Source: a virus (taxonomy: Duplodnaviria; Heunggongvirae; Uroviricota; Caudoviricetes). From it: a DNA stretch of 15,905 nucleotides. The DNA lies in the IMG/VR virus record IMGVR_UViG_3300021961_000056; one strand, given 5' to 3'. This document shows, one piece after another, positions 4,406 to 15,560 of the stretch (the first letter of the stretch is position 1; every line of letters starts with the position of its first letter). Below the pieces are notes generated by a model. It made no database searches. It was not told the DNA's origin and saw only the letters and a list, made by a program, of their open reading frames with translations. The position numbers and the translations under genes are program-made.

Positions 4406-5880
4406 GTACTGTTACGATAAATAAAAAAGATGAAGTGTATCTTCGTGTAGATGCCGACCCGGATGTTCTACTAGAAATGAATGACTTCTTCACCTTTGCT
4501 GTACCTGGCGCACAATTCACACCTCAGTATCGTGCAAAACTTTGGGATGGAAAAATTCGACTATTGAGTTTGTTCACCAAAGAATTGTATGTGGGATTAT
4601 CATCTTATGTCGAAGAATTTTGTAAAAGAAACGGCTATGCATTTGTTAATAAGTGTCAGCCTGTCTCTGATGTCGGTGATGTTGCTCAGTTTATTGCTTC
4701 GCTAAACTATCATTCGAACGGCAAGCCTGTAAACATTCGAGATTATCAAGCTGATGCTGTTCATGAAGCAATTAAAACGGGACGAACACTTCTGTTGTCT
4801 CCAACAGCAAGTGGTAAAAGTCTTGTTATTTACACGTTGGTGCGTTGGCATCAACAACATAATCGTAGGCAACTCATCATTGTTCCCACCACAAGTCTTG
4901 TGGAACAAATGTATGGAGACTTTGCCGACTACGCCACGGGTTCCGATTGGAAGGCGTCCGAGAATTGTACACGCATCTATTCAGGTAAAGAGAAAATCAC
5001 AAACGTGCCTGTGGTGATTTCCACTTGGCAAAGCATCTACAAGATGCCTAAGAGTTTCTTTGAAAACTTCGATGTCATCTATGGTGATGAATGTCATCTA
5101 TTCAAAGCCAAGTCATTGTCCTCTATCTTACATAAGTGCACCAAGGCACCGTATAAGATTGGCACCACAGGCACACTTGATGGCACCAAGACACACAGGT
5201 TGGTGTTGGAAGGATTGTTTGGTGCTGTGTACAAGGTGACAAGCACCAAGAAGTTAATGGATGAACATCAATTGGCAGACTTGAAAATTCGATGTGTTAC
5301 ATTAGATTACACAGATGAAGAAAAACAATTGTGTAAGAAGTTTAGTTATCAAGAAGAAATTGATTGGTTGGTAACACATCCAAAACGAAACAAGTTCATT
5401 CGTAATCTAGTATTGGATCAAAAGGGTAACACCTTGGTGTTGTTTCAATATGTAGAGAAACATGGTGAACCTTTATATGATATGATTAGTGAAAAGTTGG
5501 AAGATGGGAGAGATTTATTCTTTGTTCATGGTGGTGTTGAGGCAGGAGATAGAGAACAAGTTCGTGCCATCACAGAAGAATCCACGAACGCCATCATCTT
5601 GGCGTCATACGGAACATTCTCTACAGGCATAAATATTAGAAACCTCCATAACATTGTGTTTGCCTCACCTACAAAATCTCGTATCAGAAACTTACAAAGT
5701 ATTGGTCGTGGATTGCGTTTAGGTGAACAAAAAACAAGTTGTAAGTTATATGATATAGGTGATAACTTATCATGGAAGTCGCATAAAAATTACACATTAT
5801 TGCATCTAATTGAGCGAGTGAAGATATACAATGAAGAAGGGTTTGATTATAAACTTCTCACGGTACCTTTAAATGCATAA
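4402..5880 (+). CDS. uvsW: SF2 DNA helicase UvsW
   Basis: WDGKIRL, Walker A SPTASGKS, DECH, GTTGT, FSTGINI and QSIGRGLR. Start placed at GTG 4402, a GTGA overlap with the uvsY stop; the track's ATG 4375 lies inside uvsY. Confidence 0.96.
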   Translation: MSTVTINKKDEVYLRVDADPDVLLEMNDFFTFAVPGAQFTPQYRAKLWDGKIRLLSLFTKELYVGLSSYVEEFCKRNGYAFVNKCQPVSDVGDVAQFIASLNYHSNGKPVNIRDYQADAVHEAIKTGRTLLLSPTASGKSLVIYTLVRWHQQHNRRQLIIVPTTSLVEQMYGDFADYATGSDWKASENCTRIYSGKEKITNVPVVISTWQSIYKMPKSFFENFDVIYGDECHLFKAKSLSSILHKCTKAPYKIGTTGTLDGTKTHRLVLEGLFGAVYKVTSTKKLMDEHQLADLKIRCVTLDYTDEEKQLCKKFSYQEEIDWLVTHPKRNKFIRNLVLDQKGNTLVLFQYVEKHGEPLYDMISEKLEDGRDLFFVHGGVEAGDREQVRAITEESTNAIILASYGTFSTGINIRNLHNIVFASPTKSRIRNLQSIGRGLRLGEQKTSCKLYDIGDNLSWKSHKNYTLLHLIERVKIYNEEGFDYKLLTVPLNA

Positions 5881-6334
5881 TCTCGAAGATGGATATTTCA
5901 AGATTGTAAAATTGAAAACAGGTGAAAACATCTTGTGTAACATGGAACGAGATGTGAAGTCTACTGCTGCTGAAACACATCTTCATTTAACTATCCCTGT
6001 TCAAGTAGTTCCCATGAAAGAAACTAGAAAAGGGAATCATGTAATAGGTGAAAGTTTCATGCTTCGTCCTTGGATGGGATTAAGTGATGGCGAAGAATTT
6101 ACAATCAGCACAGATGTTGTGTTGACTATTGGTGATATGAAACGCGAAGTGAAAAAGCAATATGTCACCTATGTTACACAAGCCAAAGAAAGCCGACAAA
6201 AGTTTTTAGAACAAGAAGAACGGTCTGATGCAGTTAATGATTTGCTGCGTGAAGTGAATAACGGTGATGTTCGCATCATTGAAATTGATGATTATCATGG
6301 AGAATATTATGGCGAAGAAGAAGGAAGAGAGTAA
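5873..6334 (+). CDS. Conserved T4-like hypothetical protein between uvsW and g55 (possible Sm-like N-terminal beta domain)
   Basis: Overlaps both neighbours. The N-terminal KIVKLKTGENIL pattern resembles small beta-barrel hypotheticals found after uvsW in T4-likes. Function not assignable. Confidence 0.75.
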   Translation: MHNLEDGYFKIVKLKTGENILCNMERDVKSTAAETHLHLTIPVQVVPMKETRKGNHVIGESFMLRPWMGLSDGEEFTISTDVVLTIGDMKREVKKQYVTYVTQAKESRQKFLEQEERSDAVNDLLREVNNGDVRIIEIDDYHGEYYGEEEGRE

Positions 6335-6938
6335 ACATTACATTGACAACAAGCAATTTTTAGCCGCACTTGTTGAATATAAAAAAGAAGTGAACCGCGC
6401 CAAAAAGAACAATGACGAGCGCCCACAGGTTCCGGATTACATTGGTGATTGTTTCATTAAGATTGCCAATCATTTAGCATACAAGAGCAATTTCATCAAT
6501 TACAGCTTCCGAGAAGATATGATTCTGGATGCCATTGAGAATTGCCTCATCTACATGGACAACTTTGACCCAAAGAAATCAAGTAATCCATTTGCCTATT
6601 TCACGCAAATCACCTATTATGCATTTTTGCGTAGAATTCAAAAAGAAAAGAAGCATCTACAAACCAAATATCGGTACATTGAATCTTTGGACATTGAAGG
6701 ATTGATTCGTCAAGCACATGATGAAGGAAGTTATGATAATGGTTTCATCAAGTATTTGAAACAACAAGCTGATGCAGCTCAATTGGAATTGAGTGAGAAC
6801 AAGAAAGACAAGAAGATGACCAGAAAGCCCAAGTATCTTCAGAAATTGGATGATGATGTGGTCATTGATGAGGCACAACACATTGATGTATTAAGTGTGG
6901 ATGAATCCATTGAAACAGGTGAAATTGAATACGAATAA
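6309..6938 (+). CDS. g55: Late-transcription sigma factor gp55
   Basis: Motifs HYIDNKQF, YIGDCFIKIA, NFINYSFREDMI.DAIENC, NFDP.KS.NPFAYFTQI and AFLRRIQKEKK. Start revised to ATG 6309 (GGAG at 6299-6302). Confidence 0.96.
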   Translation: MAKKKEESKHYIDNKQFLAALVEYKKEVNRAKKNNDERPQVPDYIGDCFIKIANHLAYKSNFINYSFREDMILDAIENCLIYMDNFDPKKSSNPFAYFTQITYYAFLRRIQKEKKHLQTKYRYIESLDIEGLIRQAHDEGSYDNGFIKYLKQQADAAQLELSENKKDKKMTRKPKYLQKLDDDVVIDEAQHIDVLSVDESIETGEIEYE

Positions 6939-6941
6939 TCG

Positions 6942-6975
6942 TTGACAAGCTCCTAAATAGTTATTAGTTTATAAT
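6942..6975 (+). promoter_or_regulatory. Probable promoter region for the deazaguanine operon
   Basis: TTGACA at 6942-6947. TAGTTT sits at 17-bp spacing (6965-6970) and TATAAT at a too-long 22-bp spacing (6970-6975). A late-like CTAAATA occurs at 6953-6959. This is the only intergenic gap upstream of nine tightly packed genes. Confidence 0.6.
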
Positions 6976-6993
6976 GTGACCTGTGAGGTGTAT

Positions 6994-7887
6994 ATGAGAT
7001 ATTCAGAAATTTTCTATTCATTCCAAGGCGAGGCCGAACTGGCGGGGACACCTGCTGTCTGGCTTCGTTTCTTTGGTTGCAATTTAAATTGTGAAGGATT
7101 TGGACAAAAGAATCCAACTGACCCTTCAACATATCAACTACCATACAAAGACTTCAATGTGGATTCTGTTAAGACCATTGAACAGCTTCCCGTGTGGTCT
7201 TTTGGTTGTGATTCATCTTATTCATGGTCACAGCGATATAAGCATTTGGCACATGATGCCTCGGTGTCTGAGGTTGCTGACCGATTGATTGAAGCCAACA
7301 AGAATCAACATAATCCCGAAGGTTTGTTCACGCATCCCACAACAGGTCAAGATGTGATGTTGTGCTTCACTGGTGGTGAACCAATGTTACAACAAAAGGC
7401 GATGATGGAGATTCTAATTGAATTGTCCATGCGTGGAAATATGCCGAAGATTGTAACGGTGGAAACTAATGCCACAAAGCCATTATCAGATGAACTTCGT
7501 AGATTTATTGCCACAGATTTTCGATTCATGGGTGGGAAGCGTTGGCACTGGTCCATGAGTCCTAAGTTGTTCAATGTATCAGGTGAAAAAGATGTGGTGA
7601 TGCCAGAAGTGATTCGTGATTATACATTCAGCATGGCAACTACAATTTTAAAGTTTGTCTGTAATGGAACGAAAGAATGTTGGAATGAACTTGACAGAGA
7701 AATGGAAAGTGTTAGATTTCTTTGTAGGCAATTCACACCTCACGTTTGGGTGATGCCTGTTGGCGCCACCAAGGATGCTCAAGAGGATCCTTATATTGGT
7801 GATTTGTGCATTGAAGCAATGAATCGTGGTTACAATGTTGCCACACGAAATCATTGTTATGTCTTTGGCAACATTATTGGGAGATAA
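6994..7887 (+). CDS. queE: 7-carboxy-7-deazaguanine synthase QueE (radical SAM)
   Basis: EIFYSFQGE..GTPAVWLRFFGCNL.C, CDSSYSW, FTGGEP, TVETNAT and SMSPKL. Start revised to ATG 6994 (GAGG at 6985-6988). Confidence 0.92.
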   Translation: MRYSEIFYSFQGEAELAGTPAVWLRFFGCNLNCEGFGQKNPTDPSTYQLPYKDFNVDSVKTIEQLPVWSFGCDSSYSWSQRYKHLAHDASVSEVADRLIEANKNQHNPEGLFTHPTTGQDVMLCFTGGEPMLQQKAMMEILIELSMRGNMPKIVTVETNATKPLSDELRRFIATDFRFMGGKRWHWSMSPKLFNVSGEKDVVMPEVIRDYTFSMATTILKFVCNGTKECWNELDREMESVRFLCRQFTPHVWVMPVGATKDAQEDPYIGDLCIEAMNRGYNVATRNHCYVFGNIIGR

Positions 7888-7888
7888 T

Positions 7889-8590
7889 ATGAAATCACAG
7901 CAGCGATATAACGCAAACGCCATTCGCAATGCTTTGGGGAAGTGCGACCCGGAGCTTGGACAAAAGGTCCATAAGCATCTTCAATCTCTTGGCGTGGAAA
8001 CACCTACTATTCAGTCGGGTGAATATGCTGACAAGAAGGTGAAGAAGATTGAAAAGCACTTTACAGGCATCATGGAAACACTTGGCATGGACTTGACTGA
8101 TGACAGCCTTCAAGATAGTCCAGCTCGTGTCGCCAAGATGTTTGTGAATGAATTGTTTTGGGGATTGGATCCTGCCATGTTCCCGAAGTGTACTGCCATT
8201 GAAAACAAGATGGGGTATGATGAGATGGTGTTGGAAAAGAACATCACAGTCACTTCATGCTGTGAGCATCACTTCGTTACCATTCATGGTGTAGCTCACG
8301 TGGCATATATCCCACGTAAGAAGGTGTTGGGTCTTAGCAAGTTGAATCGTGTTGTGGAATATTTCTCACGCCGTCCACAAGTCCAGGAACGTTTGGCTGA
8401 ACAAATTTATCATGCACTTGCCTTCATTCTGGAAACAGATGATGTGGCTGTGGTGATTGATGCTGAGCATTTCTGTGTAAAGGCACGTGGTGTGGAAGAC
8501 CCTCACTCCAACACCATCACAAGCAAGTTGGGTGGTGCCTTCAAGGCGGATCCGGCTCTTCGCGCCGAGTTCATGCATCTCATCAAGTAA
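7889..8590 (+). CDS. folE: GTP cyclohydrolase I FolE
   Basis: DSPARVAKMF, SCCEHH, AYIP, GLSKLNRVV, RRPQVQERL and HFCVKARGV. Start revised to ATG 7889 (GGAG at 7880-7883). Confidence 0.97.
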   Translation: MKSQQRYNANAIRNALGKCDPELGQKVHKHLQSLGVETPTIQSGEYADKKVKKIEKHFTGIMETLGMDLTDDSLQDSPARVAKMFVNELFWGLDPAMFPKCTAIENKMGYDEMVLEKNITVTSCCEHHFVTIHGVAHVAYIPRKKVLGLSKLNRVVEYFSRRPQVQERLAEQIYHALAFILETDDVAVVIDAEHFCVKARGVEDPHSNTITSKLGGAFKADPALRAEFMHLIK

Positions 8591-8591
8591 C

Positions 8592-9113
8592 ATGGCGTTC
8601 AATGATGATGTGAACGTGATGTTGGATTTGGAAACAATGAGTACTGAATCCAACGCCGCCATCTGTTCCATTGGTGCAGTAAAATTTTCCATTGATGAGG
8701 GCATCTTGGATAAGTTTTATTGCACCGTGGATGCAGCAGATTGCAAGAAGCATGGATTAAACATTTCTGCTGACACCGTTCAATGGTGGGCAAAGCAACC
8801 AAAAGAAGTTCTTGAAATGTTACGCAAAGATAACATCCCATTACAACAAGCACTCACAAACTTTTCTAAATGGTATGGCGTGAAAGGAATGCCTACATGG
8901 GGCTGTGGTGCGGGATTTGATAACGTCATCATTGAAAACGCCTACAAGGCGGTTGGAATGAAACGTCCTTGGACACCTTGGTTGGATCGCTGTTATCGAA
9001 CCATTAAAGAAGTAATTGTTCTTCCCTTTGAAGATAGAACAGGCACGTATCATAACGCATTGGATGATGCCATTTATCAGACCAATCATCTGATTAAATT
9101 ATTCCGGAGTTGA
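8592..9113 (+). CDS. DEDDh 3'-5' exonuclease (DexA-like / Rv2179c-like)
   Basis: Exo I VMLDLETM, SIGAVKF, TVQWW, WGCGAGFDNVI (Exo II) and HNALDDAIYQ (Exo III). Start revised to ATG 8592. Confidence 0.88.
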   Translation: MAFNDDVNVMLDLETMSTESNAAICSIGAVKFSIDEGILDKFYCTVDAADCKKHGLNISADTVQWWAKQPKEVLEMLRKDNIPLQQALTNFSKWYGVKGMPTWGCGAGFDNVIIENAYKAVGMKRPWTPWLDRCYRTIKEVIVLPFEDRTGTYHNALDDAIYQTNHLIKLFRS

Positions 9114-9114
9114 T

Positions 9115-10413
9115 ATGAAATTTGAATATGTTGCATCAGGATTATCATTTCTTCGTGTGAGATTTAAGGAGTCACACTCTGGAACAACTGCTGCTCGCTT
9201 GAATGATATTTGGGCATTGCTTCGTGGCAAGCATAATCATGAGTTTTCTTTTCTGTATAATGCTTTTATTGAAAAGGAATTTGGTGAGTTTTTCAGGGGT
9301 GTGTATCGTGGCAAGGGTGTGAATCAAATCTACGCCGACTCAGGTGGTCTGCAAATGATTACACTAGGCAAGACCATCACACCACAATTGAAACAAGAAG
9401 TGTATAACAATCAAGGAAATTATTCTGATTGTGCCATGAGTTTTGATGAGATTCCAGTATCATTGAAGTCCACACGTTCATCACGCTCTGATACATCGAG
9501 CAAATATTTTGATAGAGAAAAGTTTGAATGGTGTGCACGTGAATCTGGGAAAAACATTCGTGACCAGATTGAAACATTCTTGAAGATGAAGTCTGATGCA
9601 CGTCCTTTCTTTATTGCACAAGGCAATGATTTGGAAAGCTATGTTCGATGGACAGAGTTGGCAATGGAAGAAATTCCCAAGGAACTTCATGAACGTATCG
9701 GTGGTGTGGCATTGGGAGCTGTGGCACTAGGCACAGGCACTCTTGAAGATTGTAAGCGAGCATTTTATTATACACAACTCCCGCTTTCGCAAACAACACA
9801 TCATTTCCATTTGTTGGGTGTGGGTTCTGTTTCACGATTGCTTCCCGTAATTGCCATGCAGAATCATCCAGTGTATCAAGATACTTTGATTAGCTACGAT
9901 AGCACAACTCATACATCAGGTGTGCAGATGGGAAGATATTATGGTCCCGACTTTCAATGGATTACTCCAGGTCGTTTGTTCCGAGATGATGAAGGCAAGT
10001 ATCAAACAGAAAACGGTGGTCAAGGTGCAGAAGATTACAAGTTCATCAATGCTGATGTACGAAAGTATGTGAAAGATTACATTGTGGATGATGACTTCTT
10101 CATGGAGGCGATGAATGTCCCGGTTCGTGCCTATCAGAAGTTACATAATGGAAATTATATGCCTCCACTTGAAGCCTTCAGCGCCTACTTTGTAGGTAGC
10201 ACTATGAACTTCATTCGTCATGTGGATGCTGTCACACAAGATTTCACATTGGCACATGGATTGGTTGATGAAACAACATATTCAGCCATCAATGACATGA
10301 GAAATGTCAAGACAAAGCAGGATTTTGAACATTGGTTACGTCATGCTGGAACAAGTTTAGATAGCACGCCAATTGAAGATGGTCAACCCGCAAGCCTCCC
10401 GGAGGATTTCTAA
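9115..10413 (+). CDS. dpdA: TGT-fold guanine transglycosylase, DpdA-like (DNA 7-deazaguanine insertion)
   Basis: TGT motifs occur in order: D75-SGGLQ, MSFD111E, AQ169G, GGVALG, H232LLGVG and SYD262S. There is no Cys after D262, so the tRNA-TGT zinc site is absent. Context is queE/folE/queD. Confidence 0.85.
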   Translation: MKFEYVASGLSFLRVRFKESHSGTTAARLNDIWALLRGKHNHEFSFLYNAFIEKEFGEFFRGVYRGKGVNQIYADSGGLQMITLGKTITPQLKQEVYNNQGNYSDCAMSFDEIPVSLKSTRSSRSDTSSKYFDREKFEWCARESGKNIRDQIETFLKMKSDARPFFIAQGNDLESYVRWTELAMEEIPKELHERIGGVALGAVALGTGTLEDCKRAFYYTQLPLSQTTHHFHLLGVGSVSRLLPVIAMQNHPVYQDTLISYDSTTHTSGVQMGRYYGPDFQWITPGRLFRDDEGKYQTENGGQGAEDYKFINADVRKYVKDYIVDDDFFMEAMNVPVRAYQKLHNGNYMPPLEAFSAYFVGSTMNFIRHVDAVTQDFTLAHGLVDETTYSAINDMRNVKTKQDFEHWLRHAGTSLDSTPIEDGQPASLPEDF

Positions 10414-10787
10414 TGTTTATATCACGTTACATTGAAGTCACTTTTCAAAAGGAAGGGATACACAAGTATCCTGCTGCTTTAGATGATCCGAAGTTGGCTG
10501 ATGTCCAATTTCTTGGTTACCCACATAGGCATATGTTTCATTTCCGTGTCCGCGTATCTGTGACACATAATGACCGAGACATTGAATTCATTCTATTTAA
10601 GCGTGAATTGGAAAATCTGTATCAAGGTACCATGAACATTGATTACAAGAGCTGTGAAATGTTGGCAGAAGAATTGATTGGATATATTGTAAAAAATTAT
10701 CCTAGTCGTTATGTTGAAGTAGGTGTGAGTGAGGATGGAGAGAATGGTGCTGTATTAACTAATGTACTTCCGAGTGTGCTAATATGA
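10413..10787 (+). CDS. dpdL: QueD-paralog T-fold protein, DpdL-like (predicted CDG decarboxylase family)
   Basis: F..EGIH17, L34GYPH38RH40MF (LxxxHRHxF, which I recall as the DpdL signature), SCEMLAE and VSEDGENGA. Aligns by eye to QueD but lacks its catalytic Cys. TAATG-coupled to dpdA. Confidence 0.7.
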   Translation: MFISRYIEVTFQKEGIHKYPAALDDPKLADVQFLGYPHRHMFHFRVRVSVTHNDRDIEFILFKRELENLYQGTMNIDYKSCEMLAEELIGYIVKNYPSRYVEVGVSEDGENGAVLTNVLPSVLI

Positions 10788-11812
10788 TATTCATTGTCCC
10801 TATTGAACCTATTGACCAACGCTATACTAAGCAATGGTACTATAACATCCCAAAAGATTTAGATAAGAAGGGATTGAAGTATCGTATTGTAGGTGATGAC
10901 AATAGTGACTCAGGTACTACAACAGGTGCCTTCTTGAACTTCGCCTTCACCAACAAATACAAGGCACAACAAGTGCAACAAATTGCCGACTTGTTTAGCA
11001 TGGGACAAGTCATGCCCGGTGACAAGTTCTTGGTTACGGATGCTTGGAACTTTGCCATTACTGCCATTAGATACATGAGTGATTTGTTGGATATTCCCGT
11101 GGAGATTCATGGCATCTGGCATGCTGGTGCCTATGACCCATCTGATATTTTGGGTATGAAGATGAGAGGAGATGTGGCACACAATGTGGAACGTAGTTGG
11201 TTTCATGCCTGTGATTACAATTACTTTGCCACAGAATTTCATCGCACCATGTTTTTGAATAATTTGAGCATTGAAAAACAACATCATCACAAGGCAATTC
11301 GTTCTGGGCAACCTCATCTAGAATTGGTGACATCACTTGCTCGGCATCTATCAACTCCTAAGGCTGACATGGTGTTATGGCCACACAGGTATAATTCTGA
11401 CAAACAACCTGAGATTGCCGAGGCATTGAAGTTGACCATCACACAAAAGATGAATCTGTCAAAGCCAGATTATTATGATTTGGTGGGCAAGGTGAAGGCG
11501 GTGTTCAGTTGTTCACTACATGAAAATCTTGGTATCAGCATGATGGAAGGTGTCATGGCAGGAGCCATTCCCATTGTGCCAGATAGATGCAGTTATTCAG
11601 AAATGTATCTTCCAGCATTTAAATATCCAAGCGAATGGACATCTAGTTGGGATAATTTTCAAAAGTATAAGCAAGAAGTGGATGAATTCATTCGGTATCG
11701 GGTCATCAATTATGACCAGTATCAAGGTGCCATGGAAGTGCAACGTGGTATTCTATCACAAAGTTTTATGAACGCTGACATCATGTACTCTAAACTTCTG
11801 AGGAATCTATGA
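10784..11812 (+). CDS. GT-B glycosyltransferase, GTDC1/QTMAN (DUF3524)-like
   Basis: Retaining GT-B motif E-x7-E (HENLGISMME), VLWPHRYNSDKQPE, CDYNYFATEFHRTMFL, SKPDYY and G..PIVPDRCSYSEMY. Confidence 0.85.
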   Translation: MIFIVPIEPIDQRYTKQWYYNIPKDLDKKGLKYRIVGDDNSDSGTTTGAFLNFAFTNKYKAQQVQQIADLFSMGQVMPGDKFLVTDAWNFAITAIRYMSDLLDIPVEIHGIWHAGAYDPSDILGMKMRGDVAHNVERSWFHACDYNYFATEFHRTMFLNNLSIEKQHHHKAIRSGQPHLELVTSLARHLSTPKADMVLWPHRYNSDKQPEIAEALKLTITQKMNLSKPDYYDLVGKVKAVFSCSLHENLGISMMEGVMAGAIPIVPDRCSYSEMYLPAFKYPSEWTSSWDNFQKYKQEVDEFIRYRVINYDQYQGAMEVQRGILSQSFMNADIMYSKLLRNL

Positions 11813-12252
11813 CCTATTATTCTACAAAGACATTTGGTAATGACCGTGGATTGAGCTGTGCGTTTCGTCAGTGGCGTGCCACTTCACATTGTAACCAAGT
11901 TCATGGATATAGTTTAGGATTTCGTTTCATTTTTGAATCCAAGTCTTTGGATGAAAGAAATTGGGTATATGATTTCGGTGATACTAAATGGATTTTAGAA
12001 TATCTTCGTGAAGCGTTTGACCATACAACTGCTGTAGCAGCAGATGACCCACACCTGGAACTATTCAAGCAAATGGATGAAGCAGGTATCCTCACACTTC
12101 GCATCTTCTCATCAGTAGGGTGTGAAAAGTTTGCCGAGATAGTGTATACTGATGTTGCCCCTCAGATTGCTGAACGAAGCAAGAAACGTGTTCGTCTTAA
12201 GAGTGTGGAAGTATTTGAACATGGAGCTAATTCCGCCATCTACGAGGGATAA
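11809..12252 (+). CDS. queD: 6-carboxy-5,6,7,8-tetrahydropterin synthase QueD (HGY variant)
   Basis: HCNQVHGY, WVYDFG, FDH, CEKFAE and VEVFEH; T-fold PTPS family size (147 aa). Confidence 0.88.
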   Translation: MTYYSTKTFGNDRGLSCAFRQWRATSHCNQVHGYSLGFRFIFESKSLDERNWVYDFGDTKWILEYLREAFDHTTAVAADDPHLELFKQMDEAGILTLRIFSSVGCEKFAEIVYTDVAPQIAERSKKRVRLKSVEVFEHGANSAIYEG

Positions 12253-13296
12253 ATGAAAATTGCTATTCTTACCGACACTCACTTTGGTGCTCGGAATGAC
12301 TCACAACACTTTGACGCATATTTTAGGAAATTCTATGATAATGTATTCTTTCCCTACCTTGATAAGCACAATATCAAAACAGTTTTCCACCTTGGTGATG
12401 TTTTTGATAGGCGCAAGTATATTAATTTTGCCACACTTCGCTCTTGCAAAAATTATTTCTTTGATCCTCTCCACGAATTAAATGCAGATATGTGGGTGAT
12501 TCCAGGTAATCACGACACATACTATAAGAACACCAATGAAGTGAATAGCCCAGATTTACTTCTTCAAGAATATTCCAACATTCATATCATTGATAAGTGT
12601 AAAGAAATTACTTTCGGTGAGCGAGATTTCAGCTTCATTCCGTGGATTTGTCCAGAGAATCATGCTGAGTCATTGGACTTTTTGAAGCGACATAAAGGTG
12701 TTTGTTTAGCACATTTTGAATTGATGGGCTTTCATATGTTCCGTGGTGTAGCAAATGAAGCTGGCATGGACAGAGAAATAGTGAAACATTACGACATGGT
12801 ATTAACTGGACATTTTCATCATAGAAGCACTGATGACAATGTGTACTATCTTGGTAGTCCTTATGAAATGATTTGGACTGATTTTGAGGATGTACGTGGC
12901 TTTCATATTCTTGATACTGACACATTGGAATTAACCTTTATTGAAAATCCACATCGCATCTTCCATAAAATTTACTATGATGACAGAAAACCTATCGTAG
13001 ATGCGTCTGAATACAAGAAATGTTGCGTAAAGGTGATAGTCGTACACAAAACGGACTATCAAAAGTTTGACAAATTGATTGATTCATTGTATCTTAATGA
13101 AGTGATTGAATTGACAATTCACGAAGATTTTTCCGAGTTTGAAAGTGAAGCATTGGATAGTGAGAACGTGAACATTGAAGATACCATGACGTTGTTATCT
13201 GAATATGTGGACGCCGTGGAATCAATGAAAGATAAAGAACGATTGAAAACGTTGCTCAAAACATTATATGTTGAGGCGCAAAATCTTGAACTATGA
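12253..13296 (+). CDS. g47: Recombination endonuclease subunit gp47 (Mre11/SbcD-like)
   Basis: Phosphoesterase motifs DTHFG, HLGDVFD, PGNHD, AHFE and GHFH. Confidence 0.96.
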   Translation: MKIAILTDTHFGARNDSQHFDAYFRKFYDNVFFPYLDKHNIKTVFHLGDVFDRRKYINFATLRSCKNYFFDPLHELNADMWVIPGNHDTYYKNTNEVNSPDLLLQEYSNIHIIDKCKEITFGERDFSFIPWICPENHAESLDFLKRHKGVCLAHFELMGFHMFRGVANEAGMDREIVKHYDMVLTGHFHHRSTDDNVYYLGSPYEMIWTDFEDVRGFHILDTDTLELTFIENPHRIFHKIYYDDRKPIVDASEYKKCCVKVIVVHKTDYQKFDKLIDSLYLNEVIELTIHEDFSEFESEALDSENVNIEDTMTLLSEYVDAVESMKDKERLKTLLKTLYVEAQNLEL

Positions 13297-15023: not shown

Positions 15024-15560
15024 ATGCATTTTAACATTGATGAATTACAATTAATACATTTCACTGACCAACGAATGACTACGCGGCCACCTGCGTTTGA
15101 TTTCGAAAAGGATGGTGACAAAGCAGCAGAATTGGTTGAAGTGTTGCATGCAAAGATGGTGGAATGGGATGGCGCAGGATTATCAGCCAATCAAGTAGGA
15201 CTTCCTTATCGTGTGTTTGTGATGGGAACCAAGACGGACAAGATTGCCTTTTTCAATCCTAACGTGGTGGGTGTAAGTAGAGAAGAAATTGCCATGGAAG
15301 AAGGATGTCTTTCATTCCCAGGATTCTATTTAACATTGAAGCGTCCAAAAGAAGTTGTCTTGGAATGGCAGAATGAGAAGGGAGAAACACAAACAGGAAA
15401 GTTTCAAGGTGTAGGCGCGCGAGTTGTATTACATGAATATGACCATATGGAAGGCATCAATTTCACATTTCATGCTACTCATTTCAAGTTGAAGTGGGAG
15501 TTGGATAAGTGGAAGAAGAAACAACTCAAACATCAAAAACGGTTAAGATATGGAAAATGA
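15024..15560 (+). CDS. def: Peptide deformylase
   Basis: All three PDF motifs are present: GAGLSANQVG, EGCLS and HEYDH. Confidence 0.96.
   Translation: MHFNIDELQLIHFTDQRMTTRPPAFDFEKDGDKAAELVEVLHAKMVEWDGAGLSANQVGLPYRVFVMGTKTDKIAFFNPNVVGVSREEIAMEEGCLSFPGFYLTLKRPKEVVLEWQNEKGETQTGKFQGVGARVVLHEYDHMEGINFTFHATHFKLKWELDKWKKKQLKHQKRLRYGK

Follow-up and report, generated by a model that had tools for sequence, protein, structure and literature searches.

Why would a phage keep a glycosyltransferase (GT) gene among genes that make a 7-deazaguanine base, and does the enzyme put a sugar on that base in the phage DNA? The question is raised by a 15,905-nt stretch of viral DNA (IMG/VR virus record IMGVR_UViG_3300021961_000056), the whole of which we call the window. 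Between its gp55 and gp47 genes lie seven closely spaced genes on the + strand that encode a QueE-like enzyme, FolE, an exonuclease, DpdA, DpdL, the GT and a QueD variant. An earlier note, made from the sequence alone, had read the same gene order and proposed a glycosylating deazaguanine system with a GT resembling QTMAN. We recovered all seven genes in that order on the + strand, each with family, motif or fold evidence, and kept the proposed queE start (ATG 6994). The part of the proposal that stood is a QueC-less, DpdL-type pathway with a built-in GT; the QTMAN-like label did not stand. The seven-gene system is a GT-bearing variant of the known DpdL-type deazaguanine modification, and the sequence comparisons described below partly support the proposal that the GT is an integral part of this QueC-less DNA-modification system. 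We put at roughly 0.45 the probability that DpdL and the GT together give rise to a 7-deazaguanine with a sugar in the phage DNA; if so, it would be the first case of a glycosylated purine in a genome.

Linkage of the glycosyltransferase to DpdL

A full-length GT homologue was present in 17 records of cultured phages (Phosso, eleven PA5oct-type records, ACP17 twice, BUDD, X1 and BCSR5), every one of which also carried DpdL, and a profile search added a 388-amino-acid GT that adjoins DpdL in Synechococcus phage BUCT-ZZ01. In every annotated region that we inspected, the GT was located within a FolE/QueE cluster, with DpdL adjacent to it or one gene off. The earlier note had tied its proposal to the occurrence of the GT with dpdA in other genomes, and the GT does lie beside DpdL, DpdA, FolE and QueE in ACP17, Phosso, BCSR5, BUCT-ZZ01, X1/BUDD and the PA5oct group, as well as in many phages from metagenomes. 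DpdL was found no more than 3 kb from the GT in 26 of 29 informative metagenomic contigs, a count that covers only the direction from GT to DpdL, since these loci were fetched through the GT.

Contigs with the GT-DpdL pair span T4-like, Busanvirus, PA5oct jumbo, 469-kb Phosso, PolA-type and PolB-type phages, and the pairing is widespread among marine, freshwater and soil phages. The adjacency recurred, with differing gene orders, in at least seven unrelated phage types. Distant GT members with 29-34% identity, encoded by PolA- and PolB-type phages, likewise had DpdL nearby; the distant members P0178 and P0248 gave nothing in viral contigs by single-sequence search and were reached via the contigs that encode them. 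The pairing was also kept despite different DpdA types between phages. PA5oct-type phages and a 244-kb jumbo-phage contig (L007) encode a distinct 520-540-amino-acid protein that resembles tRNA-guanine transglycosylase (TGT) and has an ADSGGFQ motif, and the window-type DpdA was present only in some GT loci. Sugar-nucleotide genes adjoin the GT in several relatives, namely a short epimerase-family protein in PAC2, a mannose-6-phosphate-isomerase-family cupin in L036 and a nucleotidyltransferase-cupin fusion in L025, which supports real sugar transfer.

The glycosyltransferase and its family

The GT gave only a sub-threshold match to the Pfam model Glycos_transf_1 (E = 0.005, 16.8 bits, below the 26.4 cut-off). 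Its AlphaFold2 model, built from a 67-sequence alignment (predicted local distance difference test 95.5, predicted TM-score 0.92), showed two Rossmann-like domains with GT4 enzymes as the best structural matches. Sucrose-phosphate synthase, BshA and MshA (6kih, 6n1x, 3mbo, 3c4q) aligned to it at Z 25-26, with a root-mean-square deviation (rmsd) of 2.6-3.1 Å over 290-309 residues (VIA-align). The EX7E motif and the basic diphosphate-binding residues of retaining GT4 enzymes were both present. Among 67 homologues, E247 of the motif (E247-x7-E255) was kept in at least 90%, E255 was invariant, and H201, R202 and K207 were nearly so. About 17 acceptor-side residues of the N-domain were retained, even in homologues of ~30% identity. 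Together, the conserved donor-site and acceptor-side residues argue for an active GT with a single specific acceptor, and judged from the model the enzyme looks catalytically competent.

The family comprises 1526 clusters at 90% identity and 1101 at 50% in the protein library, and its Atlas clusters are 95-100% viral. Among viral folds, the GT was best matched by the ACP17 protein (TM-score 0.88). The claimed likeness to QTMAN and DUF3524 was not borne out. DUF3524 (PF12038) did not match the GT even at E <= 10, the best folds were those of BshA, MshA and sucrose-phosphate synthase, and the likeness extends only to the GT4 family, of which QTMAN is a member. GTDC1 did not appear in the top 30 fold matches from Swiss-Prot, a list filled by MshA-type entries, so that a lower rank is possible, and neither the alpha- nor the beta-glucosyltransferase of T4 (GT63/GT72) appeared in the top 50 from PDB or from the viral library, which leaves room for a distant relation. 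The best sequence-level PDB match of the family, 8xsg, is cited in a paper whose subject is an Actinobacillus glucoside glucosyltransferase and not DNA. A predicted GT-DpdL complex scored 0.00 in a run without controls, a value that speaks neither for nor against binding.

DpdL and the DpdA-type transglycosylase

The motif LxxxHRHxF, which replaces the CxxxHGH of QueD, is the signature of DpdL, the proposed decarboxylase of 7-carboxy-7-deazaguanine (CDG) in phage phiST (PMC10516641). In the window the signature reads L34-G-Y-P-H38-R39-H40-M-F42, and L34, H38, R39, H40 and F42 were invariant in 16 homologues. The protein shares 35.5% identity with phiST CGPG_00067 over 94% of the query (E = 5e-13, tblastn) and 57% with the ACP17 protein. 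Signature, homology to phiST and occurrence with DpdA, FolE, QueD and QueE in the lack of QueC all assign it to DpdL. Decarboxylation of CDG by DpdL is a proposed activity, for phiST and ACP17 as well (PMC10516641). We found no residue difference between the DpdL of phages with and without the GT, either at the HRH motif or in the other conserved blocks.

In Vibrio phage Bakedbeans, the DpdL match is the C-terminal third of the 384-amino-acid gp176 (L042 6212-7363), where DpdL is seemingly fused to another domain. Rhizobium phage RHph_I1_18 (L010) encodes a DpdL 64% identical to that of the window, together with FolE and PTPS. In its complete genome neither the GT family nor a window-type DpdA was found, and nothing matched the Pfam TGT model; judging by its gene content, this phage may have either a decayed module or another inserting enzyme.

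Residues 3-276 of the window DpdA share 35.6% identity (E = 4e-31) with VPFG_00171 of Vibrio phage nt-1, which is located between FolE and QueC in that genome; nt-1 DpdA2 has been shown to insert the PreQ0 deoxynucleoside, dPreQ0, into DNA. The TGT-like motifs D75-S-G-G-L-Q80 and L233-L-G-V-G237 in the core, along with the homology to a tested DpdA, place the protein in the DpdA family. The C-terminal part has an isoelectric point (pI) of 4.7. The protein gave a weak match to bacterial tRNA-guanine transglycosylase (Tgt, E = 7.5e-4) and did not match the Pfam TGT model, as is the case with other phage DpdA.

Other members of the module

The remaining enzymes of the module and its flanking genes are listed in Table 1; gene starts were set by eye from ribosome-binding sites and relatives. 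The N-terminus of the QueE-like protein matched QueE NCBIfam models at E 7e-11, below their cut-offs, and its start is preceded by a GAGG-type ribosome-binding site. FolE scored 309 bits with NCBIfam NF006824, for which the cut-off is 202, and its relative in locus L005 has the same length, 233 amino acids.

The QueD-family protein departs from the canonical form. Its motif is C28-N-Q-V-H32-G-Y34 instead of CxxxHGH, and two of the three canonical zinc-binding histidines are missing, with FRQ for the AAH-type site and HGY for HGH; the score with the QueD model TIGR03367 was 35.6 bits against a cut-off of 89. This FRQW...SHCxxxHGY variant is kept across DpdL-type phages, including phiST (L045). 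By analogy it probably works like QueD, because phiST, a deazaguanine maker, has the same variant; the altered residues may also mean different metal binding or a shifted activity.

The membership of the exonuclease in the module is uncertain. An Rv2179c-like exonuclease was found in or beside the module in T4-like relatives (loci L005, L013, L019, L020, L024 and L028) and in Synechococcus phage BUCT-ZZ01 (L011 8525-9049), and none was found in the modules of ACP17 and X1. It could be a mere neighbour resembling T4 DexA, or it could aid DNA processing around the base exchange.

Table 1. The seven-gene module and its flanking genes in the 15,905-nt window
Feature	Coordinates	Strand	Basis
gp55-like late sigma factor (T4 core gene), left flank	6264..6938	+	phrog_234 E 7e-59
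QueE-like radical SAM enzyme (CDG synthase), 297 aa	6994..7887	+	PHROG 2076 E 4e-46
GTP cyclohydrolase I FolE, 233 aa, ATG 7889	7889..8590	+	Pfam PF01227 E 3e-62
Rv2179c-like 3'-5' exonuclease, 173 aa, ATG 8592	8592..9113	+	Pfam PF16473 E 4e-43
DpdA-type guanine transglycosylase, TGT-like core ~1-276 and acidic C-terminal extension	9115..10413	+	phrog_10773 E 8e-92
DpdL, T-fold QueD paralogue, proposed CDG decarboxylase, 124 aa	10413..10787	+	exact LxxxHRHxF motif; phrog_17812 E 3e-37
GT4-family (GT-B fold) glycosyltransferase, virus-specific clade	10784..11812	+	fold and conserved donor-site residues
QueD/PTPS-family T-fold enzyme, phage variant	11809..12252	+	Pfam PF01242 E 1e-18; PHROG 2389 E 3e-36
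gp47 (Mre11/SbcD-like), right flank	12253..13296	+	phrog_100 E 3e-104; Pfam Metallophos

Genomic setting and source phage

All sizeable genes of the window are on the + strand, and they include T4-like core genes (prohead protease, scaffold, gp23, UvsY, UvsW, the gp55 late sigma factor, gp47/gp46 and peptide deformylase). The gp23 protein shares 69% identity with its counterpart in Methylophilales phage Melnitz and 68.4% with the one in Pelagibacter phage HTVC008M. From these genes and identities, we identify the source as an uncultured marine T4-like myovirus. No cultured phage matched the module by megablast.

Consecutive genes of the module are one base apart, abut, or overlap by 1-4 bases, and gp47 starts directly after the QueD stop codon. 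A promoter and terminator scan of positions 6200-12500 showed no terminator-like site on the + strand within the module. The tight spacing and the lack of such a site suggest that the seven genes probably form one transcription unit. In the same region the counts of sigma-70 promoters and terminators were no higher than chance. A TTGACA/TATAAT pair 5' of QueE was rejected as a promoter because its hexamers are too widely spaced, at 22 nt. Rhizobium phage RHph_I1_18 lacks a module at this position and has only an endonuclease VII gene between gp55 and gp47/gp46, so that the module of the window resembles a cassette set into the T4 core between gp55 and gp47.

Two further genes were noted in the window: a peptide deformylase gene 3' of gp46 (15024-15560), and a gene for a 153-amino-acid Sm-like/DUF6561 protein (5873-6334) between UvsW and gp55.

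Comparison with DpdL-type phages

Only one DpdL phage has solved chemistry: the DNA of phiST is fully modified to the 7-deazaguanine deoxynucleoside (dDG), and the genes involved encode FolE, QueD, QueE, DpdL and DpdA3 (Cui, Hutinet et al., NAR 2023, PMC10516641). What the window has in common with phiST is a pathway that lacks QueC and comprises FolE, QueE and the same variant of QueD, along with a DpdL with the LxxxHRHxF signature and a TGT-fold DNA transglycosylase. It differs in that phiST has no member of the GT family, that its transglycosylase is DpdA3 whereas the window has the nt-1-like type, and that the phiST DpdL, with its low identity to ours, groups elsewhere in the DpdL tree, in a section without the GT.

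The ACP17 module (queD-folE-x-dpdA-GT-dpdL-queE) holds the same seven functions minus the exonuclease. Besides DpdL, the GT (31.5% identity) and the DpdA core (42%) are shared with the window; the phage is of another type, Busanvirus, and the gene order is different. ACP17 DpdL and DpdA alone in E. coli yielded no dDG, and the authors suggested that further enzymes may be needed; a glycosyltransferase is not mentioned in that paper (PMC10516641).

In the Pseudomonas jumbo phage PA5oct (Wroclawvirus), a GT with 35-36% identity to that of the window stands directly beside a DpdL with 55% identity, and QueE is nearby. PA5oct differs in having the distinct TGT-like protein, here of 540 amino acids, in place of the window-type DpdA, as well as extra epimerase-family and phosphoribosyltransferase genes. 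Its DNA is resistant to enzymes whose sites contain G and is attacked by a defence nuclease that specifically senses modified G; the study did not resolve the structure of the base (PMC12191111).

Phosphoribosyltransferase genes were observed inside the modules of PA5oct-type phages (PAC2, L003 10324-10758) and of BUCT-ZZ01 (L011 2450-2911). Their presence hints that the deaza base may also be converted to a nucleotide in some phages. In L007 (9274-10305 and 14224-15588), an IMPDH/GMP-reductase-family gene is located right after the GT, and a second GT of 454 amino acids is encoded at the end of the deazaguanine cluster. In L025 (9231-10004 and 11539-15829), the GT is preceded by a cytidylyltransferase-like and cupin fusion, and the neighbourhood contains a sulfite/nitrite-reductase-like protein, NifU and radical SAM/SPASM genes.

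The proposed pathway

FolE, QueD and QueE convert GTP to CDG, and in the window FolE, the QueD variant and QueE would carry out this established first step. As the earlier note had claimed, neither QueC nor QueF was matched among the 19 main open reading frames of the window. QueC was also not found in the complete genomes of ACP17, Phosso, PAC2 and BUCT-ZZ01, and X1 gave only a sub-threshold match far from the cluster. The lack of QueC in complete genomes that carry the GT indicates that the pathway ends at CDG-derived bases. DpdL would then convert CDG, most likely to 7-deazaguanine (DG), as has been proposed for phiST, and DpdA, by its homology to the tested DpdA2 of nt-1, would swap guanine in the phage DNA for the deaza base. 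That the cassette makes a CDG-derived base which DpdA inserts into DNA is very probable on the gene content. In the last step, suggested by gene linkage, the GT4 enzyme would transfer a sugar from a host nucleotide-sugar to the deazaguanine, most likely after its insertion into DNA; for this addition of a sugar to the inserted base, we see an even chance. The expected outcome is a 7-deazaguanine with a sugar, which would protect the DNA from restriction enzymes and perhaps also from defences that recognise plain dDG.

Several points weigh against a sugar on the base in DNA. For all phages with the GT, the sugar on DNA is a prediction. dDG offers no hydroxyl group to a sugar, and no hydroxylase or reductase that could create one was found in the window. 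The link would therefore have to be unusual, a C-, N- or acyl-glycoside; the candidate acceptor atoms are C7 or C8 of the pyrrole ring, N2, and the carboxyl of CDG, which would give an acyl-glycoside of dCDG, the CDG deoxynucleoside. The linkage is also weaker in the reverse direction, as 6 of 12 cultured DpdL lineages (RHph_I1_18, Bakedbeans, Ahp1, D479, the phiST group and MA9V-3) are without the GT family. Because these lineages lack the GT and phiST makes dDG without it, the GT is an add-on and not a requirement. In the DpdL tree, the sampling of which is biased towards the GT, most of the GT-less proteins, including that of phiST, form a divergent group, and those of RHph_I1_18 and Ahp1 are nested among GT-linked proteins; about four changes of GT label are needed, at least two of them forced by well-supported branches. 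Finally, one GT clade (L025-L027) consists of three contigs without DpdL within 26.8 kb. DpdL may lie elsewhere in the L025-clade genome, since the contig covers only ~8% of this giant genome, and the GT of this clade retains all the conserved acceptor-side residues.

Alternative acceptors

One alternative is that the DNA ends up with plain dDG (or dCDG), in the manner of phiST, and that the acceptor of the GT is a small pathway molecule, such as free DG or CDG, a nucleotide or an intermediate. Such a reaction could serve to trap, store, detoxify or export the molecule, or to make a nucleoside-like inhibitor. The nearest solved folds act on small acceptors (malate, inositol phosphate, fructose phosphate), the GT is paired more tightly with DpdL, the proposed base-level enzyme, than with DpdA, and the phosphoribosyltransferases in the PA5oct-like and BUCT-ZZ01 modules show base-level chemistry. 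A precedent is the N-glycosyltransferase HuiG, which glycosylates a free 7-deazapurine base in huimycin biosynthesis (preprint 10.64898/2026.04.15.718813). As described, HuiG and the mannosyl-queuosine synthase QTMAN/GTDC1 glycosylate 7-deazaguanine derivatives, the role proposed for the window GT, and belong to the same broad GT4-type superfamily; HuiG differs in its acceptor, a free base in secondary metabolism. The acidic nature of the GT family (median pI 5.7) might also seem to favour a small acceptor, but net charge proved uninformative as a hint of DNA binding, because DpdA is equally acidic (pI 5.7). Moreover, a sugar-bearing free base would have to be inserted by DpdA or be wasted, and the module was located among DNA-metabolism genes in every phage inspected. 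We regard the small-molecule role as unlikely.

It is rather improbable that the acceptor of the GT is unrelated to deazaguanine (another DNA base such as a hydroxymethyl-pyrimidine, a phage or host protein, or the cell envelope), with the neighbouring genes brought together only by anti-defence clustering. Phage GT-B enzymes that glucosylate hydroxymethylcytosine are well known from T4. The alpha- and beta-glucosyltransferases of T4 offer a possible functional parallel in their GT-B fold, the placing of a sugar on a modified base after replication and their counter-defence role, but they attach the sugar to the hydroxymethyl group of a pyrimidine, an acceptor that the pathway in the window does not supply. 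A thymidylate-synthase-family gene is present in Phosso and PAC2, whereas no thymidylate-synthase/hydroxymethylase family gene was found in ACP17, X1 or BUCT-ZZ01, and a T4-style hydroxymethyl-pyrimidine therefore cannot explain the GT in these three phages. The L025 clade, where the GT has no DpdL nearby, would fit an unrelated acceptor, but the retained acceptor-side residues and the small part of the genome that was covered speak otherwise, as does the recurrence of the DpdL adjacency in unrelated phage types with different gene orders.

The presence of FolE and a PTPS-family enzyme in the module could point to a pterin glycoside, made by the GT from the FolE/PTPS pterin in the manner of the cyanobacterial tetrahydrobiopterin glucosides. 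The tetrahydrobiopterin glucosyltransferase structure 9v0l matched the GT model at Z 21.4 (rmsd 3.2 Å over 284 residues), but it ranked only 47th, below many unrelated GT4 enzymes, and was not found by the GT family profile at E <= 1. The GT is paired with DpdL, QueE and DpdA are always present, the window has no sepiapterin-reductase-like gene, and most cultured phages with the GT infect proteobacteria and not cyanobacteria, all of which makes the pterin product very improbable.

A module that modifies tRNA, with QTMAN-like glycosylation of a queuosine-type base, is scarcely credible: the weak Tgt match of the transglycosylase and the shared GT4 membership of QTMAN are outweighed by the missing DUF3524, by nt-1 DpdA2, which acts on DNA, as the closest tested relative of the transglycosylase, by the lack of a QueC/QueF/QueA/QueG route to queuosine, by DG and CDG having no cyclopentenediol, the group that QTMAN glycosylates on queuosine in animal tRNA, and by phiST and PA5oct, in which G is modified at the DNA level.

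Significance of a glycosylated deazaguanine

To our knowledge, all sugar-bearing DNA bases described so far are pyrimidines (glucosyl- and arabinosyl-hydroxymethylcytosine, and base J). In line with the novelty that the earlier note had suggested, our full-text literature search, the coverage of which left out most subscription journals, turned up no account of 7-deazaguanine being glycosylated in DNA. If true, a base of this kind would represent a new class among natural DNA bases, and its synthesis would call for novel glycosyltransferase chemistry. The absence of dDG when ACP17 DpdL and DpdA were placed in E. coli could then be accounted for, and likewise the modified G of PA5oct.

Dag glycosylases target DNA with plain 7-deazaguanine, and bacterial glycosylases and END nucleases recognise plain deazaguanines (END: PMC12191111). 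A sugar on the base, if it is there, could be the phage's next move against defences that sense plain deazaguanines. The GT family is large and is present in cultured phages, which makes the idea directly testable.

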